DNA of 64,000 bases. Origin: Thermoanaerobaculia bacterium (GTDB lineage: Bacteria; Acidobacteriota; Thermoanaerobaculia; Gp7-AA8). Where the stretch lies: contig DASPHC010000082.1 of the NCBI GenBank assembly GCA_035629865.1, forward strand, positions 12,158 to 76,157, in the 5' to 3' direction. Position numbers and translations under genes: made by a program. Shown in pieces: positions 1-60,071 of this stretch; the first letter of the stretch is position 1; every line of letters starts with the position of its first letter. Under the pieces are notes generated by a model, which was not told where the DNA came from, did no database searches, and was given only the letters and a program-made list of their open reading frames with translations.

Positions 1-498
1 CCAGGCCACGCCGTAGCTGCCGGCGATGCCGACCAGCGAGGCGATAAGGATGATGACCACGCGGGCCGCGTCGAAGTGACGCAGGAACCCGAAGTAGACC
101 ACCATGATGGCCCCGATGAAGAGCTCCAGCAGGAGGATGAACTTTCCCTGCGTGACCAGGTAGGTCTTGCAGGTCTCGTAGATCAGCTCCGAGATCTCGC
201 GCATGGAGCTGTGGACGGGCAGGTTCTTGAGCTGCGTGTACATCATCAGGCCGAACAGCAGGCCGAAGACGCACACGATCAAACCGCCCAGGAGCAGGCG
301 ATCCCCGCCCATTCCGAGGAACTGCACACTGCCGAGATCCGGCAGAACGAGATCGGCCTCCGAACGATGCTCGGTGGTTGCGACCGCGGGGTCGGACGAC
401 GTTAGTGGTGCCTGTTCCTCCTGCGCCGCGGCAATCCCGACGAACGAGAGAGTGCCGATCAGCGCCGCGAGCAGGACGCGCATGTACCAGGACTTCAT
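1..498 (-). CDS. hppA: Membrane H+/Na+-translocating pyrophosphatase, N-terminal 166 codons (gene continues past left edge)
   Basis: The reverse complement of 1-498 is fully open and starts at ATG (496-498) with GGAGGA just upstream. It reads MKSWYMRVLLAALIG...NLPVHSSMREISELIYETCKTYLVTQGKFILLLELFIGAIMVVYFG...SLVGIAGSYGVAW, like M-PPase N-termini (M-x-E-I...E-x4-YL-x2-Q, then TM helices). It is not in the ORF track because it has no stop in the window. ORF 76..405 + is its antisense shadow. Confidence 0.65.
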   Translation of the reverse strand, partial: MKSWYMRVLLAALIGTLSFVGIAAAQEEQAPLTSSDPAVATTEHRSEADLVLPDLGSVQFLGMGGDRLLLGGLIVCVFGLLFGLMMYTQLKNLPVHSSMREISELIYETCKTYLVTQGKFILLLELFIGAIMVVYFGFLRHFDAARVVIILIASLVGIAGSYGVAW

Positions 499-574
499 GA
501 TTCCTCCGTGTTGGATGAAATGACCCAGTGGGGTTCGGGTCACTAAAGGCGCGCGGATTGTAGCAAAACGGTCA

Positions 575-673
575 AGAAGAGGGCAGAAGGCAGAGGGCAG
601 AGGGCAGAAGGCAGAAGTGGCGGACGCCACGGTCCTCCTTCTGCCCTCTGCCCTCTGCCCTCTGCCTTCTGCC
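575..673. repeat. Long inverted repeat; each arm is about 5 tandem heptamers GGCAGAR (or complement)
   Basis: 575-617 aagaagagggcagaaggcagagggcagagggcagaaggcagaag pairs with 637-673 ccttctgccctctgccctctgccctctgccttctgcc. The loop contains a mini-hairpin, gtggcg-ga-cgccac. The right arm ends 1 nt before the minus-strand TAA (674-676) of the GAF gene. Confidence 0.9.
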
Positions 674-5585: not shown

Positions 5586-6713
5586 GTGTACCATCCTTCC
5601 GTGCCGGCCGACCGAACTCTGCGGGATGAACTTCGTAACCTATTGCAATACGGAGACTTGAGCTTCCGCGACTTCGTCGAGCTGGCCCTCTACCATCCCC
5701 AGTTCGGGTACTACAGCCGAGCTGCAAATCCGGTCGGAAAGGTGGCGGATTACATCACCGGACCCTCGCTCAGCCCGGCATTTCCCTTCGCCATCGCCGA
5801 GCTCTTCGGCGAGTTTGTGCGCCGCTGCGAGGGCGAGGTGTACACGTTTGTGGACATCGGCTGCGGGGATGGCGGGCTGGTGCGGGAGGTTGCCGCACAG
5901 ATCCAGGATGAAAATGCGCGGTTCTTCGGCGTCGACCGCGCCCTCGACCGCGCCCTTCGCCAGAGCAATGATGAAGGCATCTCCTTCGTGCGCACCCTCG
6001 ACGAGGTTCCCCGCGACGGCGCCCACTTCCTCTTCTCCAACGAGCTCTACGACGCCCTTCCCTTTGCCCGCCTCGTCCAGCGGGGGGAGCATCTGCACGA
6101 GCTTTGGGTGACCGAGCGCGACGGAACGCTCGACTGGAGCGAGCATGAAGCCCCTCCGGTGTACGACGACTACTTCGCCGAGCGGGGGATTGTGCTGGCC
6201 GAGGGGCAGTTCGCCGATCTGTCGCTGGAGTGGGAGGCGTACCACGAAGACGTCCTCCGCTTCTTCGACCGCGCCCTCGCCGTCACCATCGATTATGGAT
6301 ATCCCCAGGAGAAGCTCTTCCACTCCCGGGCGCGGCGCTTCGGAACGGCGGCCGCGTATTCGCGGCAGCGGGTCCATCGCGATCTCCTGGCCGACCCGGG
6401 GGAGCAGGACCTGACCGCCCACGTCAACTTCACCGATCTGGAGCGGGCGGGGAGCCGCCAGGGGGCGAAGACGCTCTTCTTCGACGTCCTCGCCAAGTTC
6501 CTTCTCTCCGTCGGAATCACCCGGCATGAGCTCTTTCGGCCGGTGCACGAGGTGGGGATCGAGACGGCGGACGAAGGGCTGCAACTCATTCAGGCGCGGG
6601 AGGATGCACGCAGGCTGGTGCTTCCCGACGGGCTCGGGGTGGAGCAGCGGGTGCTGGTGCAGGGGAAGAACGTTCCGCGGGACGGCTGGTCGTTCCGGCA
6701 GGAGCTTTTCTAA
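5586..6713 (+). CDS. MidA/NDUFAF7-family class I SAM-dependent methyltransferase (DUF185)
   Basis: The ORF is open from 5145, but its first ~147 codons are antisense to the ompA-like gene. The likely start is GTG 5586 or GTG 5601. FRDFVELALYHPQFGYYS...DYITGPSLSPAF...FVDIGCGDGGL...SNELYDALPF...TIDYGY...DLTAHVNFT are typical of the MidA family. Confidence 0.8.
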   Translation: MYHPSVPADRTLRDELRNLLQYGDLSFRDFVELALYHPQFGYYSRAANPVGKVADYITGPSLSPAFPFAIAELFGEFVRRCEGEVYTFVDIGCGDGGLVREVAAQIQDENARFFGVDRALDRALRQSNDEGISFVRTLDEVPRDGAHFLFSNELYDALPFARLVQRGEHLHELWVTERDGTLDWSEHEAPPVYDDYFAERGIVLAEGQFADLSLEWEAYHEDVLRFFDRALAVTIDYGYPQEKLFHSRARRFGTAAAYSRQRVHRDLLADPGEQDLTAHVNFTDLERAGSRQGAKTLFFDVLAKFLLSVGITRHELFRPVHEVGIETADEGLQLIQAREDARRLVLPDGLGVEQRVLVQGKNVPRDGWSFRQELF

Positions 6714-6790: not shown

Positions 6791-7150
6791 ATGGCAAATT
6801 ACTCGGTGCTTCTGGTAGCCGCGCTCATCGTGCTGTCAGTACCAGTTTTGACACTTTTTATCCTTGCGCCGCTGATCCGCGCATCGCGGCCGGGCAAGGT
6901 GAAGCTCGAGCCTTATGAATGCGGGATCGCGGCAACCTCGCTGGCTTTCGATCACCGCTTCTCGGTCCGCTACTTCCTGATCGCGGTCCTCTTCATCATC
7001 TTCGACGTGGAGACGGTGTTCCTCTTCCCCTGGGCGATCCGCTTCAAGCAGCTCGGCCTGTTCGGAGCTGTCGAGATGGCAATCTTCCTCGCGATCCTGC
7101 TGGTCGGTTACTTCTATGCCTGGAAGAGGAAGGTTCTTACATGGGTCTGA
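6791..7150 (+). CDS. nuoA: NADH-quinone oxidoreductase subunit A
   Basis: Internal ATG 6791 of ORF 6731..7150. 119 aa, 3 TM. PYECG and [14 protein letters not shown] motifs. Confidence 0.95.
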
Positions 7151-8163
7151 TCGAGAACCGCTTCGAGTCGAACGTTCTCACCTCGACCGTCGACAAGTTC
7201 TTCAATTGGGCGCGTAAATCCTCTCTCTGGCCGATGCAGTTCGGCCTGGCCTGCTGTGCCATCGAGATGATGGCCGTGCTCGACCCGCGGCACGACATGG
7301 CCCGCTTCGGCGCCGAGGTCTTCCGCGCCACTCCCCGTCAGGCCGACCTGATGATCGTCTCCGGGACGGTCACCGAGAAGATGGCTCCGATCGTCCGCCG
7401 CCTGTGGGACCAGATGCCCGATCCGAAGTGGGTGATCGCCATGGGCTCGTGCGCCACCTGCGGCGGCCCGTACGACACTTACGCCGTGACCCAGGGAGTC
7501 GACCGGCTGGTTCCGGTCGACGTCTACATCCCCGGCTGCCCCCCACGCCCCGAGGCGCTGATCTGGGGGCTGATGGAGCTCCAGAAGAAGATCGAGAAGA
7601 TGCACATCCTGCGGAAGGGCGGCGAGGCGTACGACTTCGCGCGCGCCGCGGTGCGCGACACCCTCCGGCCGGCCCACGAAGGTCCGGCGCTGCGCGCCGA
7701 ACAGGCCGCCCAGCTCAAGCAGGCGCCGATCTCGGGCGTCAAGCGCGCTCCCTCCGCTCCGGCGGCGGCGAAGCCGAAGGCGGCTCCCGCGGCGGTGGCC
7801 GAGGCTCCGGTCGAAGGCGACGTCTCCCAGGCCGAGCTCGAACAGGCTGCCGCACCCGAAGTGCTCCCGGGAGAAGAGACGGACGGCGCATCTCCTGCCG
7901 CCCCGTTCCATCGCGACGATCTGATGCTCACCGAGCGCATGCAGATGGCGGACGAGATGGGCGGCAAGTGGGAGACCAAGCTCTTCGCGGCGATGGCCCA
8001 GACCGACTGCGGCGCCTGCGGCTGGGACTGCGAAGGCTACGCAGACGCCATCGCCTCCGGCGAGACCGACGACATCTCACTCTGCGTCCCCGGCGAGTCG
8101 GAGACGCTGGACATGCTGGAAGCGTTGATGAAGGAAAAGGGGAGGACGTACTCGGGGGTGTAG
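7141..8163 (+). CDS. nuoB: NADH-quinone oxidoreductase subunit B with long C-terminal extension ending in an RnfB-type Fe-S domain
   Basis: ATG 7141 within ORF 6919..8163, overlapping the nuoA end. Core motifs are [18 protein letters not shown] and IPGCPPRPE. The core is followed by an Ala/Pro-rich linker and the tail [33 protein letters not shown]. Confidence 0.95.
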
Positions 8164-8166
8164 AGA

Positions 8167-8372
8167 TTGTTGTCGGTTGTCGGTTGTCCGAAACCTGTTT
8201 GGCCTGGGCGGCAGGCCTGGCGGGAACCGACAGGGTTTCAGGTGCCTGCGTTCTTTTGCCGTTGCTGTTTGCTGATTGTTGATGTGGTCTGGGTTGTCCC
8301 GCGTTGGTTATCCGTAAGTCTTCGCTCGGGCGAGGCCGGTTCGGACAACCGACAACCGGCAACCGACAACCC
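8167..8372. repeat. Long-range inverted repeat (GTTGTCG heptamer arms) enclosing a structured ~140-nt insert
   Basis: 8167-8195 ttgttgtcggttgtcggttgtccgaaacc versus 8338-8372 ggttcggacaaccgacaaccggcaaccgacaacc. Inner hairpins: gaaacctgt...acagggtttc (8190-8239) and ggcctg-ggcgg-caggcc (8201-8217). Confidence 0.8.
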
Positions 8373-8399
8373 CCTCGGCAACCGGGAACCAGCAACAGA

Positions 8400-9266
8400 A
8401 TGTCAGAGTTAACTCCGCCGAGCTCACCTCCACCTGCGGCGGCGCCTGCGGCGCCCGCGGCGCGCAGCGTCGACGAGATCAAACGCGATCCGCTGGTTGC
8501 GGCCGCGGTGTCGCGCGTGAGCGATGCGATCACCGGGGCGAGGGAGATGGTCGGCGAGATCACGCTCTTCGTCGAGCGCGACCGCATCGTCGATGTCTGC
8601 CGCGCCTTCAAGAGCGACGGCTTCGTCTATCTCGTCGACCTGGCCGGCGTCGACTATTCGAAGTTCCCGAACCACACCGGCCCGCGCTTCAGCGTCGCCT
8701 ACATGCTCTACTCGTTCGCCAGGAACGCGCGGGTGCGGCTGCGGGTCTGGACCGGCGACGGCGAGCCGGTGCCGTCCGTGACCTCGGTCTGGAAGACGGC
8801 CAACTGGCACGAGCGCGAGACCTTCGACATGCTCGGCATCACCTTCACCGGCCACCCGAACCTCGAGCGCATCCTGATGTGGGAAGGCTTCAACGGCTTC
8901 CCGCTGCGCAAAGACTTCCCGATCCGCGGTATCGACACCGGTGCGCGCATCTACCCGGAAGTCTTCCCCGAAGGGGGCGGTCCGAAGGCGGGATCGACCG
9001 GCAAGGACGTCAAGGACGTCAATGTCTACAAGGGCGAATGGAAGCGCTACGGCACCTGGCCTGCCGCGCAGATCGGCGGCGGCAATGGTGCGAAAGCGCC
9101 GGCGAAACCGGCCGCTCCTGCAGCGAAGCCGGTAGCCGCGGTCGCTCCGGCAGCTGCGCCGGAACCGGCGCCTGCGCCTGAACCGGAACCGGCGCCTGCA
9201 CCTGAACCGGAACCGGCGCCTGCACCTGAAGTGGAGACGGAGACGGAGGACGATACAGATGCTTGA
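8400..9266 (+). CDS. nuoC: NADH-quinone oxidoreductase subunit C with Pro/Ala/Glu-rich C-terminal tail
   Basis: ATG 8400 within ORF 8304..9266 (upstream codons lie in the repeat). [24 protein letters not shown] signature. The tail [24 protein letters not shown] is encoded by short tandem DNA repeats. Confidence 0.9.
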
Positions 9267-10374
9267 CGTCCATGAGATGGAGGTCAACTTCGGTCCCCAG
9301 CATCCGTCGACGCACGGCGTGCTGCGAGTGCTGCTGAAGATCGACGGCGAGCGGATCCTCGACGCCAAGCCGATCATCGGCTATCTCCACCGCGGCACCG
9401 AGAAGCTCTTCGAGTACATGGCCTATCCGCAGTGCATCCCGCACACGGACCGGATGGACTACGTGGCGGCGGCGACGAACAACCTCGGCTTCGTCGAGAC
9501 GGTCGAGAAGCTGCTCGGCGTCGCCAAACAGATCCCCCGCCGCGCGCAACTGATGCGGGTGATGCTGTCGGAGCTGCAGCGTATCTCCTCGCACCTCCTC
9601 TGGCTCGCCACGCACGCCATCGACATCGGCGCCATGACGCCGTTCTTCTACACCTTCCGGGAGCGCGAGCAGATCCTCGACCTCTTCGAGAACTACTGCG
9701 GCGCGCGCCTGACGCTGAACTGCATGCGCATCGGCGGCATGCCCGAAGATCTGCCGCACGGCTGGCTCGAAGACGTCGACGCCTTCACCGCGAAGTTCCC
9801 GGCCGCGATCGACGAGTACGAGTCGCTGCTGACCAACAACCGCATCTGGAAGCGCCGCACCGTCGGTATCGGCGTGCTCTCGCCCGAAGAGGCGATCGAG
9901 TGGGGCATCACCGGTCCGCCCCTGCGCGGCTCGGGCGTCGAGTGGGACCTCCGCCGCGCGCAACCATACGAGTGCTATCCGGAGCTCGAGTTCGACGTGC
10001 CGGTCGGAAAGAACGGCGACACCTACGACCGCTACCTCGTCCGGATGGAGGAGATGCGCCAGTCCACCCGCATCCTCCGCCAGTGCATCCCCCTGGTCCG
10101 CCAGACTCCCGCCGGCGACATCAAGGCGAAGATGTCCAAAGTCATCCGCCCGCCGGAAGGGGAGGCCTACCACTCCATCGAATCGCCGAAGGGGGAGATC
10201 GGCTACTACATCGTCTCCGACGGCAAGACCCAGAACGCCTACCGCTGTCACGTCCGCCCGCCGTCGTTCGTGAATCTGCAGGCTTTGCCCGCAATGGCGA
10301 AGGGACATCTGGTGAGCGATCTGGTCGCGTTGATCGGGACGATCGACATCGTGTTGGGAGAGGTGGATCGATGA
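9259..10374 (+). CDS. nuoD: NADH-quinone oxidoreductase subunit D
   Basis: 371 aa. [24 protein letters not shown], and the end [10 protein letters not shown]. 8-nt overlap with nuoC. Confidence 0.97.
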
Positions 10375-10378
10375 TGAG

Positions 10379-10460
10379 GAAATGCAAAATGCAAAATGCA
10401 AAATGCGAAATTGAAAACCGTTTTTTCATTTTGCATTCTGCATTTTGCATTTTGCATTTC
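10379..10460. repeat. AT-rich hairpin with arms of tandem heptamer AATGCAA
   Basis: 10379-10417 gaaatgcaaaatgcaaaatgcaaaatgcgaaattgaaaa versus 10423-10460 ttttcattttgcattctgcattttgcattttgcatttc. Confidence 0.9.
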
Positions 10461-10489
10461 GATGCTGCGGCGGTGTCGGAGGGACGCGC

Positions 10490-11626
10490 GTGAATCAAGC
10501 CCTGCTGACCTACCTCATCTGGCCGGTCGTGAAGTTCTCGATCGCCTTCATCATCGTCCAGGCGATCGTCGCGGCGATGAACTGGGTCGAGCGCAGGCTG
10601 CTCGGGCTCTTCCAGGCCCGCCTCGGTCCGAATCGCGTCGGACCCGCGGGGCTGCTGCAGATCATTGCCGACCCGATCAAGTTCCTGCTCAAGGAAGACA
10701 TCGTGCCGTCGAGCGCGGAGAAGGTGGGCCACTTTCTCGGGCCGGTGCTGCCGCTCGTCCCGGCGTTCGTCGTCTTCACGCTCATCCCGTACGGACCGCC
10801 GCCGACGTTCACCGTCACGCGCGTCAACGTCGGGTTGCTGCTGATCCTGGCCATGACCTCCACGGCGGTCTACGGGATCATCCTCGGCGGCTGGGCGTCG
10901 AACAACAAGTACTCGCTCATGGGCGGCCTTCGCTCGGCGGCGCAGATGGTGTCGTACGAGGTGCCGTTCGGCCTCTCGATCGTCGGCGTGCTGATGCTCA
11001 CCGGCTCGCTCGACCTCGTCACCATCGTCCGCTACCAGGAAGCGAACGCCTGGAACCTCTTCCCGCAGATCGTGGCCTGCTTCATCTTCCTGGTGTCGAT
11101 GAATGCGGAGAACAACCGCACCCCGTTCGACCTCCCGGAAGCGGAATCGGAGCTGGTGGCCGGCTATCACACCGAGTATTCGGCGATGAAGTTCGCTTTC
11201 TTCATGCTGGCCGAGTACTCGATGATGATCGTGAACTGCTGCCTGATCGTCACCCTCTTCTTCGGCGGCTGGGGCCTCGGCATGTTCGGCATCGGACTGA
11301 CCACCGAGGTGCTGGGGAAGATGGGCATCTGGGGCGGGCTGCTCGGCGCGGCCATCTTCTTCACCAAGGTCATGCTGTTCCTGCTCGGCTACGTCTGGCT
11401 GCGGGCGACCTTCCCCCGTTTCCGTTTCGACCAGCTCATGGACCTCGGCTGGAAGTTCCTGATCCCCCTCTCGCTGGCGAACATCTTCATCACCGGCATC
11501 TTCATTCTCATCGGACAGGAGCGGCTCATGAGCTGGGTCGGCGTGGTCCTGATCGGTCTCACCGCGTACTACCTGTTCCGCCCGAAGCGCGCTGCACGCT
11601 CACAAAAGGTGGCTCATGCAAGTTGA
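10490..11626 (+). CDS. nuoH: NADH-quinone oxidoreductase subunit H
   Basis: GTG 10490 (GGAGGGA 6 nt upstream) within ORF 10445..11626. GLLQIIADPIKF and NRTPFDLPEAESELVAGYHTEYS signatures. Confidence 0.95.
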   Translation: MNQALLTYLIWPVVKFSIAFIIVQAIVAAMNWVERRLLGLFQARLGPNRVGPAGLLQIIADPIKFLLKEDIVPSSAEKVGHFLGPVLPLVPAFVVFTLIPYGPPPTFTVTRVNVGLLLILAMTSTAVYGIILGGWASNNKYSLMGGLRSAAQMVSYEVPFGLSIVGVLMLTGSLDLVTIVRYQEANAWNLFPQIVACFIFLVSMNAENNRTPFDLPEAESELVAGYHTEYSAMKFAFFMLAEYSMMIVNCCLIVTLFFGGWGLGMFGIGLTTEVLGKMGIWGGLLGAAIFFTKVMLFLLGYVWLRATFPRFRFDQLMDLGWKFLIPLSLANIFITGIFILIGQERLMSWVGVVLIGLTAYYLFRPKRAARSQKVAHAS

Positions 11627-12149
11627 GTATCCGAAGGAGAGGTGGTCGGACAAGTTCCTCCTCCTCGACATGCTCGAGGGGCTGAAGACGACGTTCCGGG
11701 AGCTGTTCAAGCCGAAGGTGACGATCCGCTACCCCGAGGAGCGGATGGAGCCGGCGGACCGGTTCCGAGGGATGTTCAAGTTCTCCTACGACCGCTGCAT
11801 CGCCTGCAAGCTCTGCGCGGTGGCCTGCCCGATCGACATCATCTACATCGACGTCCACGACGAGACCATCGAAGAGGGCGGCAAGAAGAAGAAGATCAAG
11901 ATCCTCGACCGCTACGACATCGACGTCAAACGCTGCATGTTCTGCGCGCTCTGCGAAGAAGCCTGCCCCACCAAGCCGAAGTCGATCTGGCTCACCACCA
12001 AGACCTACGAGCTGGCCAGCTACGACCGCAACGACCTGTACTTCAACATGCAGCAGCTCGAGTACTGGGACGACCGTCCGAAGTACACGGGATTGCCGGA
12101 AGAGGAGGAGAAGCCGCGGCTCGACGAGACGCGCCTTCTCAACTCATAA
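11616..12149 (+). CDS. nuoI: NADH-quinone oxidoreductase subunit I (2x[4Fe-4S])
   Basis: CIACKLCAVACP and CMFCALCEEACP motifs. 11-nt overlap with nuoH. Confidence 0.95.
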   Translation: MQVEYPKERWSDKFLLLDMLEGLKTTFRELFKPKVTIRYPEERMEPADRFRGMFKFSYDRCIACKLCAVACPIDIIYIDVHDETIEEGGKKKKIKILDRYDIDVKRCMFCALCEEACPTKPKSIWLTTKTYELASYDRNDLYFNMQQLEYWDDRPKYTGLPEEEEKPRLDETRLLNS

Positions 12150-12152
12150 GTC

Positions 12153-12821
12153 ATGGAATCGCTCTCCGAAAGCATTCCCCTGCTCGTCTTCATGCTCATC
12201 GGCACGGTGGCCGTGGCCTCGTCGATTCTCGTCGTGGCGATGCGCAACCCGGTGCACTCGGCGCTCTTCCTCCTGCTCACGTTTCTCTGCGTGGCGGTGC
12301 TGTTCGTCATCAAGGCGGCCGAGTTCGTGGCCGCGGTGCAGGTGCTCGTCTACGCGGGCGGCATCATGGTGCTGTTCCTCTTCGTGGTCATGCTGATCAA
12401 CCACCGCGAGCTGCCGGAGGACAAGGTCCTCTCGCCGGTCTGGCTCGGTGGGATCGGCATCGGCCTCGCGGTGCTCGTCCTCTTCGCCACGATCGTCCGC
12501 AGCGGCGCGTACCACGACCAGGTGCCGGACGCCGCGCGCAAGCTGTCGACGGTGAGGGAGGTGGTCGACCATCCGACCGACCCGAACAAGCTCGTGCGCC
12601 GCTCGAAAGAGAACCGCAATTCCGAGGCGGTGGCGATGGCGCTCTACACGGACTACCTCGTCCCGTTCGAAGTGGCCTCGCTGTTCCTGCTCGTGGCGAT
12701 GATCGGCGCGATCGTGATCGGCAAGCGCGAGCTCTCAGCCGAAGAAGAAGAGACCACGCCGCAGTTCATCCTCGACCGCGCGGAGACGGAGAAGGAAGTG
12801 AAGGAGGCGATGAGTGCTTGA
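12153..12821 (+). CDS. nuoJ: NADH-quinone oxidoreductase subunit J
   Basis: 222 aa, hydrophobic ND6-like N-terminal part (FVAAVQVLVYAGGIMVLFLFVVML), position between nuoI and nuoK. Confidence 0.9.
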   Translation: MESLSESIPLLVFMLIGTVAVASSILVVAMRNPVHSALFLLLTFLCVAVLFVIKAAEFVAAVQVLVYAGGIMVLFLFVVMLINHRELPEDKVLSPVWLGGIGIGLAVLVLFATIVRSGAYHDQVPDAARKLSTVREVVDHPTDPNKLVRRSKENRNSEAVAMALYTDYLVPFEVASLFLLVAMIGAIVIGKRELSAEEEETTPQFILDRAETEKEVKEAMSA

Positions 12822-12824
12822 GTT

Positions 12825-12923
12825 GAAGGGCCGAGGGCCGAGGGCCAAGGGCCGAGGGGAAGGCCCGGTCGCGCCCACATCTGCTGCTTCTCCCTCGGCC
12901 CTCGGCCCTCGGCCCTCGGCCCT
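12825..12923. repeat. Hairpin with arms of tandem heptamer GGGCCGA
   Basis: 12825-12860 gaagggccgagggccgagggccaagggccgagggga versus 12891-12923 tccctcggccctcggccctcggccctcggccct, with a ~30-nt loop. Confidence 0.9.
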
Positions 12924-12940
12924 GCGCCCCGGAGGTGCGA

Positions 12941-13243
12941 ATGCCCAGCACTGAAGCCTACCTCATGCTCTCCGGCACCCTCTTCGCCGTCGGGCTGATC
13001 GGCGTGATCGTCCGGCGGAACATGATCACCGTGCTGATGTCGATCGAGCTGATGCTCAACGCCGTCAACATCAACCTGGTCGCCTTCTCCCACCGCCTGG
13101 CCAACCTGGAAGGGCAGGTCTTCACGATCTTCGTCATCTGCATCGCCGCCGGCGAGGCCGCGGTCGGGCTGGCGATCATCATCCAGTTGTACCGGCTGCG
13201 CAGCACCGTGAATGTCGACGAGGTGAGGACGCTGAATGGATAA
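12941..13243 (+). CDS. nuoK: NADH-quinone oxidoreductase subunit K
   Basis: ATG 12941, 5 nt after GGAGG (12931-12935). The track ORF starts at GTG 12935. ND4L-like: [19 protein letters not shown]. Confidence 0.9.
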
Positions 13244-15395
13244 GGCATTACTGGCAGTCGTCCTGCTGCCCGCGCTCGGTGCGCTGATCAACGGCGCGCG
13301 CGCGTTCAGCGATCCGCACCAGCCGAAGAACAAGAGCGTGACGAACATCGTCGCGCTGGGGGCGACGTTCCTTTCGGCGATCGTGGCCACGTTCTTCGTG
13401 GTCCTCCCGTACCACGGGCCGGGACCGGTGCAGTTCTCCTATTACGAATGGATCCCGTCGGGGATCGGGGCGGTTGGTAACCAGATCGCGAATTTCTCGA
13501 TCGACCTGGCGTTCCGCGTCGACCCGCTCTCCTGCACCATGCTGATGATCGTCACCTGGATCGGCTTCCTGATCCACGTCTACGCCACCGGCTACATGGC
13601 GCACGAGAAGGGCTACACGCGCTTCTTCACCTACCTCAACCTCTTCATGTTCATGATGCTGTTGCTCGTGCTCGGCGCGAACTACATGGTCATGTTCGTC
13701 GGGTGGGAAGGGGTGGGGCTCTGCTCCTACCTGCTGATCGGCTTCTATTACGACAAGAACTTCGCCGCCGACGCAGGGAAGAAGGCGTTCATCACCAATC
13801 GCATCGGCGACTTCGGCTTCATCCTCGGCATCTTCCTGATCTTCAACACCTTCGGCACCTCGGACTACGGCAAGGTTTTCGCGCTCGCCGCGCAGGGCGG
13901 GATCGCGGAGTACGGCGGGGTCGCCACGGCCATCTGCCTCCTGCTGTTCGTCGGTGCCTGCGGCAAGTCGGCGCAGGTGCCGCTGTACGTCTGGCTGCCG
14001 GACGCGATGGCCGGCCCGACGCCGGTCTCGGCGCTCATCCACGCGGCCACCATGGTCACCGCGGGCGTCTACATGGTCGTCCGCTCGAACGTGCTGTTTC
14101 GGATGGCGCCCGACGCGGCGCTGGTGGTCGCCATCATCGGCGCGGTCACGGCCATCTTCGCCGCCTCGATCGCCCTGGTGCAGAACGACATCAAGAAAGT
14201 CCTGGCCTACTCGACCGTCTCGCAGCTCGGCTACATGTTCCTGGCCGCCGGCGTCGGCGCGTACACCGCGGCGATCTTCCACGTCATGACCCACGCCTTC
14301 TTCAAGGCCTGCCTCTTCCTCGGCGCCGGCTCGGTCATTCACGGCTGCGGCGGCGAGCAGGACATGCGCAAGATGGGCGGCCTCAAGAAGTACATGCCGC
14401 GGACGCACCTGACGATGTTCATCGCCACGGTGGCCATCGCCGGCATCCCGCCGCTGGCCGGCTTCTTCTCGAAGGACGAGATCCTGGCTAACGCCTTCTC
14501 GCACCACAAGCCGCTCTGGATCCTCGGCATCATCACCGCGGGCATGACCTCGTTCTACATGTTCCGCCTCTACTTCATGACCTTCCACGGCAGCTACCGC
14601 GGGGCGCATGCCGTAGGGATCGAGGAGTCGGAGCCGGCGCACGGCGGTCACAACCTGATTCCGGCCCAGCCGCACCTCGACCAGGGCGACGCGCACAGCG
14701 ACAAGGCCCACGGCCATCACGCCCACAGCCACGATCCGCACGAGTCGCCGCTCAGCATGACCGGCGTGCTCGGCATCCTCGCGTTCCTCTCGTTCGTCGG
14801 CGGGTTCATCGGATTGCCGGCGGCTCTCGGCGGCCTGCATCCGACCTGGTTCCAGCAGTGGCTCTCCCCGGTGCTGCTGCCGATCGCCGGCGACCGCTAC
14901 GAGTTCCACCACGCCTCGCACGCGCTCGAGTACACGCTGATGGCGGTCTCGATCGGCGTCGCGGCGCTGGGCTGGTTCTTCGCGCGCCGCTTCTACGGTC
15001 TCGACCCGTCGTGGGCGACGCCGAAGCGGATTGCCAACAACTTCGCGCCGATCCACCGCCTGCTCGAGAACAAGTACTGGGTGGACGAGCTCTATAACAA
15101 GACCGTCATCGCCGGCACGCTGCTGCTCTGCCGGATTCTCTGGTGGGTCGACATGTGGATCGTGGACGGCGTGGTCAACGGCGTCCGCCACCTCACCGTC
15201 TTCGCCTTCGGCCACGGCTCGAACCTGTTCGACAAATACGTCGTCGACGGTGCGGTCAACGGCGTGGCGTACGGTGCCCGAGGGGGCTCGATGATGTTCC
15301 GCAGGGTCCAGAGCGGCCTGGTCCAGAACTACGCACTGATCATGGGCGGCGGGGTCGTCCTGATCGCGATGGTGTACCTGTTCATGAAGCCGTAA
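13236..15395 (+). CDS. nuoL: NADH-quinone oxidoreductase subunit L
   Basis: 719 aa. [14 protein letters not shown] and [35 protein letters not shown]. Overlaps the nuoK end. Confidence 0.95.
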
Positions 15396-15414
15396 TCAGG
15401 GAGAAGAGAGTCGA

Positions 15415-17028
15415 ATGGGCATTCTCAACATCATCACGTACATCCCGCTGGCCGGAGCGCTGGTCCTCCTGGTTGCCGTGAACAGGAACAATCCGCGCCT
15501 GGCCCGGGTCATCGCCACCGTCACGGTGGTGATCGACTTCCTGGCCTCCCTCTGGCTGTGGCCGAACTTCGACCGCGCCGCCACGGGCGCGAAGATGTGG
15601 CAGTTCCGCGAGACCTACGACTGGATCCCCTCGCTCGGCGTCCAGTACGACTTCGGCATCGACGGCATCTCCCTGCTGCTGATCCTGATGACCACGTTCT
15701 TCGGCATCATTGCCGTGGTCTCCTCCTACAGCGCCATCAACTTCCGCGAGAAGGAGTACTACACCCTCCTGCTCCTGCTGCAGACCGGCATGATCGGCAC
15801 GTTCTGCGCCCTCGACTTCTTCCTCTTCTACGTCTTCTGGGAAATCATGCTCGTGCCGATGTACTTCATCATCGGCATCTGGGGCGGCGCGCGGAAGCTC
15901 TACGCGGCCATCAAGTTCTTCATCTACACCCTGGCCGGTTCGGTGCTGATGCTGCTCTCGATCCTGGCCCTGTACTTCTTCAACGACGGCGGCATCCCGT
16001 TCCTCAACATCGCCGGACTCAATAATCCCGGCACCTTCAGCGTCCTGAAGTTCCACGAGATCGGACACCTGATCCCGCCGACGCTGCAGTTCTGGATCTT
16101 CGCCGGCTTCTTCTTCGGCTTCGCCATCAAAGTCCCGATGTTCCCGTTCCACACCTGGCTGCCCGACGCGCACGTCGAGGCGCCGACCGCGGGCTCGATC
16201 ATCCTCGCCGCGGTCCTGCTGAAGATGGGCACCTACGGCTTCGTGCGCTTCGCCCTGCCGATCCTGCCGGACGGCACGAAGCAGTGGCTGATCCCGATCG
16301 TGGTGCTGTCTCTCATCGGCATCATCTATGGCGCGCTCGTGTCGCTGGTGCAGAAGGACATGAAGAAGCTGGTGGCCTACTCCTCGGTCTCCCACCTCGG
16401 CTTCGTCATGCTGGGCATGTTCGCCCTCAACCCGATGGGCCTGCGCGGCTCGATCCTGCAGATGATCAACCACGGCATCTCCACCGGCGCCCTCTTCCTT
16501 CTGGTCGGCGTGATCTACGAGCGGCGGCACACGAGGATGATCGCGGATTACGGCGGGCTGGCGAAGCAGATGCCGATGTACGCCACGCTGTTTCTCATCG
16601 CCGCGCTCTCGTCGATGGGACTGCCGGCGCTGAATGGCTTCATCGGCGAGTTCACGATCCTCCTCGGCGTGGCCAACTCCGAGGCGTACGGCACGATCCT
16701 CTACGCCGTGATCGCCTCGGTGGGCATCGTCCTCGGCGCCGCCTACCTGCTGTGGCTCTACCAGCGCGTCTTCTGGGGGCCGCTCGACAACCCCGCCAAC
16801 GCGACGGTCGAGGACGTGAACTGGCGCGAGCGCGGCCTGCTCTTCGCGCTCGTCGCGGCCATGATCTGGATCGGCGTCTATCCGAAGCCGCTCTTCGAGA
16901 TCATGGAAAAGCCGGTCGACTACATCGTCCAGAAAGTCGATCCCGAGTACTTCGCCCGCAACCCCGTCACCTATCCGGCCGAGCCGGTCGCCGCCCCCGC
17001 GGACCATCATGAGGTAGCTGCGAAATGA
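15415..17028 (+). CDS. nuoM: NADH-quinone oxidoreductase subunit M
   Basis: 537 aa. FYVFWEIMLVPMYFIIGIWGG and KVPMFPFHTWLPDAHVEAPTAGS. Confidence 0.95.
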   Translation: MGILNIITYIPLAGALVLLVAVNRNNPRLARVIATVTVVIDFLASLWLWPNFDRAATGAKMWQFRETYDWIPSLGVQYDFGIDGISLLLILMTTFFGIIAVVSSYSAINFREKEYYTLLLLLQTGMIGTFCALDFFLFYVFWEIMLVPMYFIIGIWGGARKLYAAIKFFIYTLAGSVLMLLSILALYFFNDGGIPFLNIAGLNNPGTFSVLKFHEIGHLIPPTLQFWIFAGFFFGFAIKVPMFPFHTWLPDAHVEAPTAGSIILAAVLLKMGTYGFVRFALPILPDGTKQWLIPIVVLSLIGIIYGALVSLVQKDMKKLVAYSSVSHLGFVMLGMFALNPMGLRGSILQMINHGISTGALFLLVGVIYERRHTRMIADYGGLAKQMPMYATLFLIAALSSMGLPALNGFIGEFTILLGVANSEAYGTILYAVIASVGIVLGAAYLLWLYQRVFWGPLDNPANATVEDVNWRERGLLFALVAAMIWIGVYPKPLFEIMEKPVDYIVQKVDPEYFARNPVTYPAEPVAAPADHHEVAAK

Positions 17029-18500
17029 CCTGGGGCGACACCGTCTACCTCCTGCCGGAGGTCATCCTCACGCTGGGGGCCTGCTTCCTGCTGCTGGCGC
17101 CGGTCATCGGCTTCCGCACCGACGCCGGCACGGCGAAAGTGGCGATGCTGGCGGTGCTCGCCGTCACCATCGTCGCGCTGTTCGTCTCCTCGTGGGCGGT
17201 CGGGGACATCCCGCAGACGCGCGGCTTCGCGTCGATGTTCGTCCTCGACAAGTTCTCCCTCTTCTTCAAGCTGCTCTTCCTCGTCACCATCGCCATGGTG
17301 ACGCTGCTCTCCGACCGCTACCTGCGCGGCACGCGCTATTCGGCCTGGGAGTACTACTCGCTGATGGGCTTCGCCCTCATCGGGATGATGTTCATGGCCT
17401 CGGGCGTCCACCTGGCGACGATCTACGTCGGGCTGGAGCTGATGTCGCTGTCGAGCTACGTCCTGGCGGGATACTTCAAGAACGAACAGAAATCGACCGA
17501 GGCGGCGATGAAGTACTTCGTCCTCGGCGCGGTCAGTTCGGCCATCCTGCTATACGGGATCACGCTGATCTACGGCGTCACCGGGTCGCTGAACCTGCTG
17601 ACCATCTCCAGCCAGATGTCGCAACTGGTGACCAACGACGCGCTGATGTTCGGGATCATGCTCCTCGGTGCGGGACTCTGCTTCAAGATCGCCGCGGCGC
17701 CGTTCCACGTCTGGACCCCGGACGTCTACGAGGGAGCCCCGACCCCGATCACCGCATTCCTGTCGACTGCCTCGAAGGCGGCCGCGTTCGCGATCTTCGT
17801 CCGCATCTTCTACGTCGGCATGCACCACTTTCGCCTCGACTGGCAGAACGTCCTGGCGATCGTGGCGGCGCTCTCGATGATCGTCGGCAACCTCGCTGCC
17901 ATCACCCAGGACAACGTCAAACGGATGATCGCCTACTCGTCCATCGGACATGCCGGCTACGTGCTGCTCGGCATCCTGGCGGTGAGCGAGATGGGCCTGC
18001 GGGGAGTATTGGTCTACTCGGTGGTCTATGTCTTCGCCACGCTCGGTATCTGGGCGTGCGTGCTGGTGCTGGCGCAGACGGAGTATGCCGGCGAGCGGGT
18101 GGAGGACTTCGACGGGCTGCACCGGCGGGCGCCGTTCTGGGCCTTCGCCATGATCGTCTTCCTGCTGTCCCTCGGCGGCATCCCGCCGACGGCCGGGTTC
18201 ATCGGCAAGTACTTCCTCTTCTATGCGGCCGTAGGAGCGGGCTTCGGCTGGTTGGCCATCATCGCCGTTCTGATGTCCGCGGTCTCGATCTTCTACTACT
18301 TCCGCCTGGTCACGGCGATGTACTTCCGCGACGGGAAGGGAACGGAGACGCCGGTCGTGGCCGGCGGGGGACTGATGGTGGTGGGGGTGGTGTGCCTCAT
18401 CGCGACGCTGGTCCTCGGCGTCCTGCCGTCGCGTTTCATCGACGAGGTGATCCGCACCGGCGACCCGGTCACCAGGCGTCTCGCCAATGCCGGACGATAA
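17025..18500 (+). CDS. nuoN: NADH-quinone oxidoreductase subunit N
   Basis: 491 aa. GLELMSLSSYVLAG and FKIAAAPFHVWTPDVYEGAPTP. ATGA overlap with nuoM. Confidence 0.95.
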   Translation: MTWGDTVYLLPEVILTLGACFLLLAPVIGFRTDAGTAKVAMLAVLAVTIVALFVSSWAVGDIPQTRGFASMFVLDKFSLFFKLLFLVTIAMVTLLSDRYLRGTRYSAWEYYSLMGFALIGMMFMASGVHLATIYVGLELMSLSSYVLAGYFKNEQKSTEAAMKYFVLGAVSSAILLYGITLIYGVTGSLNLLTISSQMSQLVTNDALMFGIMLLGAGLCFKIAAAPFHVWTPDVYEGAPTPITAFLSTASKAAAFAIFVRIFYVGMHHFRLDWQNVLAIVAALSMIVGNLAAITQDNVKRMIAYSSIGHAGYVLLGILAVSEMGLRGVLVYSVVYVFATLGIWACVLVLAQTEYAGERVEDFDGLHRRAPFWAFAMIVFLLSLGGIPPTAGFIGKYFLFYAAVGAGFGWLAIIAVLMSAVSIFYYFRLVTAMYFRDGKGTETPVVAGGGLMVVGVVCLIATLVLGVLPSRFIDEVIRTGDPVTRRLANAGR

Positions 18501-18702
18501 ACAGAAACGCGAATACCGCCAGCTTCTCGAGGCCTCGGCCATCGCCTGGATGTTCCCCATCGCCATCGGCCTGGGGGCGCTGTGGGGGTGGGGGATGGAC
18601 AAGCTGTTCGGGACGTGGCCGTGGCTGACCGCAATCTTCACCGGCTTCGGGATCATCGCGGCCTTCGTGAACCTCTTCCGCATGTCGTCCGGCCCGAAGT
18701 GA
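18487..18702 (+). CDS. atpZ: AtpZ/AtpI-type small membrane protein of F-ATPase operons
   Basis: 71 aa, two TM helices (AIAWMFPIAIGLGALWGW; WLTAIFTGFGIIAAFVNLF). Position immediately before atpI/atpB. The start lies 14 nt inside nuoN. Confidence 0.65.
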   Translation: MPDDKQKREYRQLLEASAIAWMFPIAIGLGALWGWGMDKLFGTWPWLTAIFTGFGIIAAFVNLFRMSSGPK

Positions 18703-19136
18703 CGACGAGCCCGCCGCCGGAGCCGCCTCCGCTCGAAGAGCCCCCCTGGTACGAGCGGGAAACGCCGGCCGACGTGCTCCGGCGGATCAAGCGGACGGCG
18801 CTGGGGGCCTATGCGGTTTTCGCGGTTTTCTCCCTGATTTCGGGCGGTTTTCCGGCCTTTCTCGGGTTGACTTGCAGTGCAGCCGTCACTATGATCAGCT
18901 TCCTTTGGTTGGAGGAGATCGTTGACGTTCTGCTCCAACCGGCGGCACACCTGCACGCTCGGAGGCTGACGTTGCGTACCCTGGCGCGCTTCGCTCTCCT
19001 CGGTGTGGCGCTCACGGTCACGATCATCATTGCTCGTTTCAATGCGTTAAGTGTGTTGCTGGGGTTCTCAATCGTCGTGGTGGGAATCTGCGGCGAAGCT
19101 CTGTATTCCCTGGTCCGAGAGGTAGCTCGAAGGTAG
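18699..19136 (+). CDS. atpI: ATP synthase protein I-like membrane protein
   Basis: GTG 18699 (GTGA overlap with the atpZ stop) within ORF 18582..19136. Four predicted TM helices. Sits directly before atpB. Confidence 0.55.
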   Translation: MTTSPPPEPPPLEEPPWYERETPADVLRRIKRTALGAYAVFAVFSLISGGFPAFLGLTCSAAVTMISFLWLEEIVDVLLQPAAHLHARRLTLRTLARFALLGVALTVTIIIARFNALSVLLGFSIVVVGICGEALYSLVREVARR

Positions 19137-19838
19137 ATGGAACACGAACACTCAATCCTGTACGAGCCGTTCAACAAATACATCTGGCGCCACGCGTTCG
19201 GGTTCGACGTTCCCGATCACGTGATCATGGCCCTTTTGGTCCTGCTCCTGAGCTCGATCATCTTTCCGCTCATGTCGCGGAAGATCAGCAAGGACAACCC
19301 GGGCGGCTTCCAGCAGTTCCTCGAACTGATCGTCGGCGGACTCAAAGGGCTGCTGCACGAGATCGTCGGGCCGCACTCGGAGCGCTTCCTCTACATCATC
19401 GGCGGCTTCGCGGTCTTCATCTTCGTCTCGAACCTCTTCGGCCTCTTCTTCTTCCTGCAGCCGCCGACCGGCAACGTCAACACCACGTTCGCCCTCTCGC
19501 TGACGGCGTTCCTCTACTACAACATCCAGGGGATCAAGGCGCAGGGGGTGGGGCACTACCTCGCGCACTTCGCCGGCCCGATCTGGTGGCTGGCGCCGCT
19601 CATGTTCCCCATCGAGTTGATCGGACACTTCGCCCGCATCCTCTCGCTGGGCATGCGTCTGTTCGGGAACATCTTCGGCGAGCACACCGCCACCGGGATC
19701 TTCATGGGCATGATGCCGTTCGTCGTTCCCTGGCCGATGATGGGCCTGGGGATCTTCGGCGCCTTCCTGCAGACGTTCGTCTTCATCATGCTGACGATGG
19801 TGTACATCGGCGGAGCAGTCGCCACGGAAGAGCACTAA
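19137..19838 (+). CDS. atpB: F0F1 ATP synthase subunit a
   Basis: 233 aa. LSLGMRLFGNIFGEH (essential Arg region). Multi-TM. Confidence 0.95.
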   Translation: MEHEHSILYEPFNKYIWRHAFGFDVPDHVIMALLVLLLSSIIFPLMSRKISKDNPGGFQQFLELIVGGLKGLLHEIVGPHSERFLYIIGGFAVFIFVSNLFGLFFFLQPPTGNVNTTFALSLTAFLYYNIQGIKAQGVGHYLAHFAGPIWWLAPLMFPIELIGHFARILSLGMRLFGNIFGEHTATGIFMGMMPFVVPWPMMGLGIFGAFLQTFVFIMLTMVYIGGAVATEEH

Positions 19839-19889
19839 ACAGACATCGAACAACCTACGGGTTTCGACATCAACAAGGAGGAGAGTCTA

Positions 19890-20201
19890 GTGAATAAGAA
19901 AACCATCATCCTGTTCGTCATCCTCGCGCTGACGACCTTCTCGGCGTTCGCGCAGGACGCGACGACCACGACCAGCAACGGCGTCCTGTGGGGCCCGATC
20001 TCGGCCGCGTTCGTCCTCGGCATCGCCGCCGCGGCCGGCGCCATCGGCCAGTCCCGCGCCATCGTCGCGGCCTGCGAAGGCATCGCCCGCAACCCGGGAG
20101 CCGCCGGCGCGATCCGTCTGGCGATGATCATCGGTCTCGCGCTCATCGAGTCGCTGGTCATCTACGCGCTCATCATCGCGTTCATCGTCCAGGGCAAGTA
20201 A
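19890..20201 (+). CDS. atpE: F0F1 ATP synthase subunit c with N-terminal signal-peptide-like extension
   Basis: GTG start with AAGGAGGAG upstream. GIAAAAGAIGQS...ARNPGAAG...LALIESLVIYALIIAF (c-ring hairpin with carboxylate E). Confidence 0.9.
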   Translation: MNKKTIILFVILALTTFSAFAQDATTTTSNGVLWGPISAAFVLGIAAAAGAIGQSRAIVAACEGIARNPGAAGAIRLAMIIGLALIESLVIYALIIAFIVQGK

Positions 20202-60035: not shown

Positions 60036-60071
60036 TTGGTTGTCGGTTGTCCGTTGTCGGTTGTCCGAACC
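60036..60071 (+). repeat. Single arm of GTTGTCG/GTTGTCC heptamers
   Basis: ttggttgtcggttgtccgttgtcggttgtccgaacc. The last 19 nt are nearly identical to 8176-8195. Confidence 0.8.

Follow-up and report, generated by a model that had tools for sequence, protein, structure and literature searches.

Where do electrons enter a complex I that is encoded without NuoEFG? The donor of the 11-subunit enzyme is acknowledged as unresolved, no common donor protein having been found (PMC11238625). A 64,000-nucleotide stretch from a Thermoanaerobaculia bacterium (GenBank assembly GCA_035629865.1, contig DASPHC010000082.1, positions 12,158–76,157 of the forward strand; hereafter the window, numbered from its first letter) encodes a complex I that bears on this question and makes it directly testable, as its NuoB ends in an additional Fe-S domain held on a tether. 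On balance we consider it probable that this tail is a mobile, ferredoxin-like [4Fe-4S] carrier on a flexible tether, relaying electrons between the NuoI/NuoB cluster chain and some soluble redox partner. An earlier note, made from the same DNA without database searches, had described the tail and likened it to the Fe-S domains of RnfB and of corrinoid Fe-S proteins.

The C-terminal domain of NuoB

The nuoB gene is composed of the following segments.

7141–8163, forward strand: nuoB, 340 amino acids, with core, extension, tether and FeS domain in a single open reading frame (ORF) (ORF list, translation and Pfam)
7141–7620, forward strand: NuoB core, aa 1–160, PF01058 (Pfam; 95% column identity over 75 orthologues)
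7621–7740, forward strand: conserved post-core extension, aa 161–200 (windowed identity 0.79–0.95 over 75 orthologues)
7741–7905, forward strand: variable Ala/Pro/Glu-rich tether, aa 201–255, ~55 residues (windowed identity 0.25–0.61)
7906–8160, forward strand: C-terminal FeS domain, aa 256–340 (Pfam, NCBIfam NF004859 and AlphaFold2)
7999–8091, forward strand: PF04060 match, aa 287–317 (Pfam)
8008–8085, forward strand: cysteine motif C290-x2-C293-x3-C297 ... C315-x-P-G (translation and alignments)

The C-terminal 85 residues of NuoB are a small acidic domain of the PF04060 superfamily, predicted to bind a single [4Fe-4S] cluster. The Pfam model PF04060 (“FeS”) scored 29.1 bits with the whole of NuoB and 30.9 bits with the tail alone, against a gathering score of 23, which bears out the proposal in the earlier note of a PF04060-type four-cysteine domain. 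The cysteines named there (C290, C293, C297 and C315) were all invariant in the NuoB and NuoC tails compared (113/113). Tail identity among NuoB orthologues is ~76–79%, rising to 99% near the cysteines (75 orthologues). The tail was modeled by AlphaFold2 as four helices with a pLDDT of 90.5, and its net charge of −11 and pI of 4.2 make it acidic in the manner of a ferredoxin. With four invariant cysteines, and with a tail that is conserved while its tether varies in both sequence and length, the alignments show the tail to be under purifying selection.

The tail of ~75 residues given in the earlier note is present, and the peptide quoted from it was found verbatim, but the folded domain is larger, at ~85 residues. 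Similarly, the linker of ~95 residues is indeed rich in Ala, Pro and Glu (50 of the 95 residues within aa 161–255) but is made of two parts, a conserved extension of 40 residues and a variable tether of ~55 residues. Helices are predicted in the extension at aa 161–175 and 181–189, where the AlphaFold2 model is of low confidence. The distance from core to tail differs among NuoB orthologues, ranging from 75 to 103 residues, and the in-frame GC content at third codon positions is 0.75–0.93 across the linker, i.e. coding-like throughout.

The remainder of the protein is a NuoB, as judged by PF01058, by N2-type cysteine motifs (tandem CC, GxCxxxGG and PGCPP) and by the position of the gene between nuoA and nuoC. 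PF01058 was matched at aa 38–147 (E 1.7e-29; 102.6 bits against a gathering score of 27, Pfam) and NF005012 at 250.9 bits against a cut-off of 116 (NCBIfam). Cys 38, 39, 104 and 133 lie in the motifs CCAIEM, GSCATCGG and IPGCPP and were invariant in 25 orthologues; we take them to be the ligands of cluster N2. The mechanical ORF begins at 6919, yet a start at 7141 (MGLIENRF) overlaps the stop of nuoA.

An assembly or frameshift artefact was considered as the origin of the fusion and was ruled out. Related loci were taken as the best 80 of 257 stretches matching the tail profile, one genome per species (GTDB), and all 80 are from Thermoanaerobaculia/Acidobacteriota metagenome-assembled genomes. 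At 74/74 related loci where both were located, the core and the tail belong to the same unbroken ORF, which excludes a chimeric join or frameshift. A search with full-length NuoB gave at least 120 clusters of 336–346 aa at 83–100% identity, named as from “Thermoanaerobaculia bacterium” or Acidobacteriota, and more than 115 of them contain both Pfam domains. Short stand-alone “FeS” proteins recovered with the tail were contig-edge fragments, late start calls within the tail or products of long-read frameshifts.

Relatives of the domain and its other host subunits

The tail comes closest to the N-terminal domain of the NF004859/PRK06214 family, “sulfite reductase subunit alpha” (NCBIfam; 86.2 bits, E 2e-24), with NuoB aa 228–336 aligned to model positions 43–147. 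The score falls short of the whole-protein cut-off of 432 bits, and the FAD_binding_1 plus NAD_binding_1 module found by Pfam in P0226 and P0244 is absent from NuoB; true members of the family (P0226, P0244 and P0282) have FeS, FAD_binding_1 and NAD_binding_1 domains. When 1.84 billion representative proteins were searched with a profile of the tail, 671 matches were obtained at E ≤0.001, and PRK06214-type proteins were recovered at E 1e-23 and lower. The likeness amounts to ~45–51% identity over ~85 residues, with the four cysteines and the flanking motifs WHD, ERM, AAMAQxDC, GYAxAIAxGE and LCxPG in common; tails borne by Nuo subunits are 54–65% identical to each other as against 45–51% to the reductase FeS domains. 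Whereas in PRK06214 the FeS domain is N-terminal on a reductase, in NuoB it is C-terminal on a complex I subunit.

The arrangement of these reductases is informative as to what the domain may do. In CysJ, the FMN domain carries electrons from the NAD(P)H/FAD module to the acceptor, and by comparison with this familiar layout the FeS domain of PRK06214-type reductases takes the place of the FMN domain. P0326 unites NIR_SIR, FeS, FAD and NAD modules in a single chain, with the FeS domain between the siroheme and FAD/NAD modules; by domain order, this is the position of an inter-module electron carrier.

The same homologues lend themselves to a reading in which the domain is an output device, the enzyme running in reverse so that quinol and the proton-motive force would drive electrons to a low-potential acceptor, e.g. 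assimilatory siroheme sulfite/nitrite reductases. The closest homologues belong to sulfite/nitrite-reductase-type systems, including the NIR_SIR fusion of P0326, and RnfB lies within the same domain superfamily; Rnf supplies low-potential electrons comparably in some bacteria. However, in the 80 loci the operon has no linked gene for a sulfite/nitrite reductase or any other acceptor, and direction is not readable from sequence. We give this reading little chance, and as complex I is reversible, it would be a variant of the tethered carrier rather than its true opposite.

As for the likeness to RnfB and corrinoid Fe-S proteins, what stood was the shared family, PF04060; the closest relative is instead NF004859/PRK06214 (86 bits, against 34 for RnfB). 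RnfB has the cysteine pattern C-x2-C-x3/4-C...C-x-PG in common with the tail and, like complex I, is part of a membrane-bound redox-driven ion pump. Membership in RnfB was rejected on score (TIGR01944 at 34.0 bits against a cut-off of 68.7, with other RnfB models at 34 bits or less, all below cut-off) and on architecture, NuoB consisting of PF01058 and PF04060 only, without ferredoxin-type dicluster domains. The window ORFs scanned include no rnf genes. The large subunit of the corrinoid Fe-S protein (AcsC/CdhE) was likewise rejected, NuoB having no TIM-barrel or B12-related domains (Pfam). The N-terminal [4Fe-4S] domain of AcsC/CdhE belongs to the same Pfam family as the tail, PF04060, and, likewise a small cluster-bearing domain with a flexible linker, relays single electrons. 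Bradyrhizobium Flp was tried as a characterized PRK06214-type relative and set aside; it is a 418-aa FAD/NAD(P)H flavoprotein, and its paper does not mention an Fe-S domain.

Existing annotation has been affected by this homology. For contig-edge fragments of the tail (P0122–P0201), JGI gives the name “sulfite reductase (NADPH) flavoprotein alpha-component” and NCBI either “sulfite reductase subunit alpha, partial” or “(Fe-S)-binding protein”, a systematic mis-annotation of NuoB tail fragments caused by their homology to NF004859. Tail-bearing proteins are elsewhere annotated as plain “NuoB” or “NuoI”.

The domain is not special to NuoB, and the same one is found on NuoC and NuoI in related and unrelated lineages; the profile matches include the NuoC fusions P0205 and P0225 and the NuoI fusions P0216 and P0221. 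On whichever of the three subunits, the fusion was seen only in operons without nuoEFG. At 39/78 related loci, or 40 if one with a split ORF is counted, NuoC also terminates in this FeS domain, joined through a linker, so that about half of these genomes encode two copies of the tail, one on NuoB and one on NuoC. NuoB tails are 76% similar to one another and NuoC tails 75%, as against 63–64% between NuoB and NuoC tails, even within one genome. This closer resemblance within host type than across points to an old duplication of which both copies have been kept under selection. NuoC is the sole carrier of the domain in L001 and in L089/L090, the latter being a partial third context in which NuoC bears the tail on a short linker. 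The window NuoC has an extension of its own.

9075–9263, forward strand: Ala/Pro/Glu-rich C-terminal extension of NuoC, 63 aa, with an acidic tip and no domain (Pfam and composition)

The same domain-less extension is present in the 38 loci most similar to the window, and it resembles a tether whose cargo was either lost or never acquired.

Fusions to NuoI were found in operons of the order nuoA-B-C-D-I(+tail)-H-J-K-L... without nuoEFG (L086, L087 and L091). A search with one NuoI fusion gave at least 120 clusters of 277–400 aa, and all of those with a named organism were from Verrucomicrobiota; among the 120 matches listed, the cysteine motif was present in 118/118 NuoI tails checked. Between Acidobacteriota and Verrucomicrobiota the tail is 54% identical, compared with 32% for NuoI, 33% for NuoC and 47% for NuoD. 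NuoI tails align to positions 7–146 of NF004859, including an EQRxWL-like motif.

This motif (e.g. PFNAEQREWLQKLF) was observed upstream of the FeS domain in 108/118 NuoI fusions (P0361–P0478) and also at the extreme N terminus of PRK06214-type reductases (P0226); it was not detected in the window NuoB. Other arrangements of the domain were also recovered. P0202 has three FeS domains in tandem with Ala/Pro linkers between them. P0206/P0349 (L084 and L085) is a 225-aa Thermoanaerobaculia protein with a Cys-rich N terminus followed by the same domain, and P0207/P0214 (L088) are proteins of ~250 aa in which the same FeS domain follows an unannotated N-terminal domain. The gene neighborhoods of the tail-bearing P0349, P0214 and P0226 gave no clear partner or function.

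Across the three host subunits, the tethers range from ~49 to >130 residues and are poorly conserved. This bears on a reading that corresponds to the docking site suggested in the earlier note, namely that the domain is a static extension of the wire, docked permanently on NuoI, NuoB or NuoC as a landing site for free ferredoxin or flavodoxin. The domain and cysteine evidence is the same for this arrangement as for a mobile carrier, and an acidic tail and a basic NuoI loop could make a stable interface. One attachment point and a short linker would be expected of it, however, rather than three subunits with long, variable tethers, and two copies per complex in about half of the genomes would not. 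The attachment point varies while the domain stays constant, which fits a tethered mobile module and not a structural element, and we regard a permanently docked domain as unlikely.

A possible role in electron entry

Electrons in complex I leave the N-module for N6a, the outer cluster of NuoI, and continue through N6b and the N2 cluster of NuoB to quinone; in an enzyme without NuoEFG, N6a is the exposed entry point. We propose that the extension and the Ala/Pro/Glu tether hold the FeS domain on the Q-module, from where it would dock on a soluble redox enzyme and accept one electron. The loaded domain would then swing to the exposed cluster N6a of NuoI, and the electron would move on to N6b, N2 and quinone. 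In this way the FeS domain would fill the input role that NuoEFG has in the 14-subunit enzyme. The mobility of the domain, its docking to NuoI, the direction of electron flow and the identity of the donor are features that we infer from sequence comparison. A carrier-type Fe-S domain fixed to the input end of the enzyme, on three subunits and across two phyla, at times in duplicate, would mark the place of electron entry.

As to the partner, the closest homologues point to its type, a reductase module with FAD and NAD(P)H. By this homology our leading guess for the donor is an NAD(P)H flavoprotein of the FNR/CysJ type; the main alternative, with which the data agree equally well, is a ferredoxin-reducing enzyme. 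The earlier note had thought of a non-NADH donor such as a ferredoxin; with the FeS domain beside a FAD/NAD(P)H module in its homologues, a ferredoxin-type donor is one option and an NAD(P)H-oxidizing flavoprotein is no less likely. On the receiving side, the loop between the two 4Fe-4S motifs of NuoI is Lys-rich, with the sequence GKKKKIK in the window, and a GK(K/x)KK(I/V/L)K loop was present in all 62 Thermoanaerobaculia NuoI proteins examined. It is a possible landing site for the acidic tail.

Several observations weigh against a tethered carrier. The Lys-rich loop, compared among Thermoanaerobaculia, may be widespread in NuoI proteins. AlphaFold2 prediction of full-length NuoB gave a pLDDT of 47 on a shallow alignment and the model was not used, so the flexibility of the linker is argued from composition and variability only. 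A Foldseek comparison of the tail model with the PDB gave nothing significant, the best relevant match being the corrinoid protein 9fzy_F (E 5.7, TM 0.43, 51 columns), and a PDB sequence search with the tail gave RnfB (8ahx_B) at E 0.66 only. No conserved redox partner was found beside the operon at related loci. Finally, other Acidobacteria often have two nuo operons, one with nuoEFG and one without (bioRxiv 10.1101/197269).

This last point gives rise to the reading that an N-module encoded elsewhere joins the complex in trans, leaving the tail as an auxiliary second entry or with a minor role. It draws on the presence of several nuo operons in other Acidobacteria, one of them with nuoEFG (same source), and on a case in which one nuoEFG set serves two operons (PMC4453560). 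In the window, the operon passes directly from nuoD to nuoH, as the earlier note had observed, and nuoEFG is not between them; the same holds in 66/66 related Thermoanaerobaculia loci where both genes were located (nuoD–nuoH gap ≤209 nt) and, for the lack of nuoEFG in the operon, in three Verrucomicrobial loci. Pfam scans of ~40 other window ORFs gave no NuoE, NuoF or NuoG, nor did a motif search, and no NuoE or NuoF motif was found in 1.3 Mb of fetched flanks, a reach of the window plus flanks of up to 10 kb that is not genome-wide. Together with the restriction of the fusion to operons without nuoEFG, these results make an N-module in trans look rather improbable.

A further reading takes the domain off the electron path altogether, as a sensor of redox state, oxygen or iron, or as an aid to Fe-S assembly, that would tune activity or biogenesis. 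Single-cluster four-cysteine domains can serve as sensors, and no partner was identified at related loci, as such a role would allow. Against it, the homologous domain stands between catalytic redox modules in CysJ-like and NIR_SIR fusions, the domain recurs on exactly three subunits around the N6a/N6b/N2 chain, and its duplicated copies have been kept under selection. We find a regulatory or assembly role very improbable.

More broadly, the data may describe a distinct class of complex I, in which one or two tethered FeS domains on NuoB, NuoC or NuoI replace NuoEFG for electron entry, with FNR/CysJ-type NAD(P)H flavoproteins or several soluble proteins as donors. We put this forward tentatively. 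Other routes around the N-module provide the frame for it. Cyanobacterial and chloroplast NDH-1, with NdhS, NdhV and NdhO, is likewise of the 11-subunit type without NuoEFG and is fed at the NuoI/NdhI end by ferredoxin, a one-electron Fe-S carrier. There, free ferredoxin is caught by extra small subunits, whereas here a carrier-like domain is fused covalently. The ferredoxin-fed enzyme of cyanobacteria and chloroplasts is mentioned in PMC11238625, and replacement of the N-module by other input devices is described for the Campylobacter type (NuoE/F replaced, flavodoxin as donor) and for archaeal Fpo/Fqo (FpoF or ferredoxin) (PMC4453560). These devices are separate, unrelated subunits in or near the operon, and none is a PF04060 domain fused to NuoB, NuoC or NuoI. 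The layout of the tether also resembles that of the lipoyl domains of 2-oxoacid dehydrogenase E2, which are swinging-arm carriers on Ala/Pro-rich, length-variable tethers and sometimes occur in several copies; fold, cofactor and chemistry differ, and the comparison is one of analogy only.

Alternative input modules of complex I (NdhS/ferredoxin, Campylobacter flavodoxin and FpoF) are thus already known, and the PF04060 fusion looks like an undescribed form of the same theme. The earlier note had known of no description of the fusion, and no account was found in the literature on complex I and PF04060, a coverage that did not extend to the work of Chadwick et al. (2018) on unusual forms of complex I, which may mention the NuoI extension. 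In surveys of how complex I varies, the only fusions mentioned are CD and BCD. If a tethered carrier does feed the enzyme, cytoplasmic reductant would reach quinone by a path not recognized before, in two phyla that are abundant in soil, Verrucomicrobiota and Acidobacteriota (class Thermoanaerobaculia). Thermoanaerobaculia turned up in 78.8% of soil datasets (PMC11245096). Given how common the host lineages are in soil, the enzyme may matter for models of soil respiration.

The nuo operon and its surroundings

The operon comprises nuoA, B, C, D, H, I, J, K, L, M and N, and all eleven subunits were confirmed by Pfam. It is of the 11-subunit type, a contiguous nuoABCDHIJKLMN with no nuoEFG between nuoD and nuoH. 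Its genes, other than nuoB, and the gene upstream of nuoA are as follows.

5586–6713, forward strand: NDUFAF7/MidA-like methyltransferase upstream of nuoA, start codon uncertain (PF02636)
6791–7150, forward strand: nuoA (PF00507)
8400–9266, forward strand: nuoC, 288 aa from the Met at 8400 (Pfam)
9259–10374, forward strand: nuoD, followed directly by nuoH (PF00346)
10445–11626, forward strand: nuoH (PF00146)
11616–12149, forward strand: nuoI, with two ferredoxin-type 4Fe-4S motifs (Pfam)
12153–18500, forward strand: nuoJ, K, L, M and N (PF00499, PF00420 and three PF00361)

The gene order at related loci is methyltransferase-nuoA-B-C-D-H-I-J-K-L-M-N, the PF02636 methyltransferase preceding nuoA, usually as its immediate neighbor, at most of the 80 Thermoanaerobaculia loci. 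Mitochondrial NDUFAF7, an assembly factor for complex I, methylates the homologue of NuoD.

Genes for a redox partner were looked for in the same regions. No ferredoxin or FNR genes were found among the window ORFs scanned, and scanning 1.3 Mb of related loci for motifs gave no match. The general Pfam scan of window ORFs gave no match to NdhS, NdhV or NdhO, with no search aimed at them. PNPOx-like flavoprotein genes lie upstream in the window and recur in only 10 related loci. Upstream neighbors across loci are OmpA-like genes, the methyltransferase and H+-pyrophosphatase, and in the window atp genes lie downstream. The operon has further genes of membrane energetics on either side. The H+-pyrophosphatase of the window is a fragment at its left edge (1–630, reverse strand), and the gene is also upstream in L002; atpI-like, atpB and atpE genes follow directly after nuoN (18582–20201, forward strand).

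In the Verrucomicrobial contig of L091 (7217–19811), the operon with the NuoI tail has four antiporter-like PF00361 genes (L, M, M and N); an additional pumping subunit is here combined with the tethered FeS domain.

The spacer between nuoB and nuoC in the window (8164–8399, 236 nt) can form a long hairpin with a minimum free energy of −111.5 kcal/mol (z −3.8). In its arms, a tandem heptad (GGTTGTC)n at 8169–8189 pairs with its inverse at 8343–8370. The heptad-repeat motif also occurs at 2573–2600 and 60039–60066, with 7 matches in the window against 0 expected by chance, and an exact-match search found it in 0/91 other loci; it is apparently a dispersed repeat specific to this genome.

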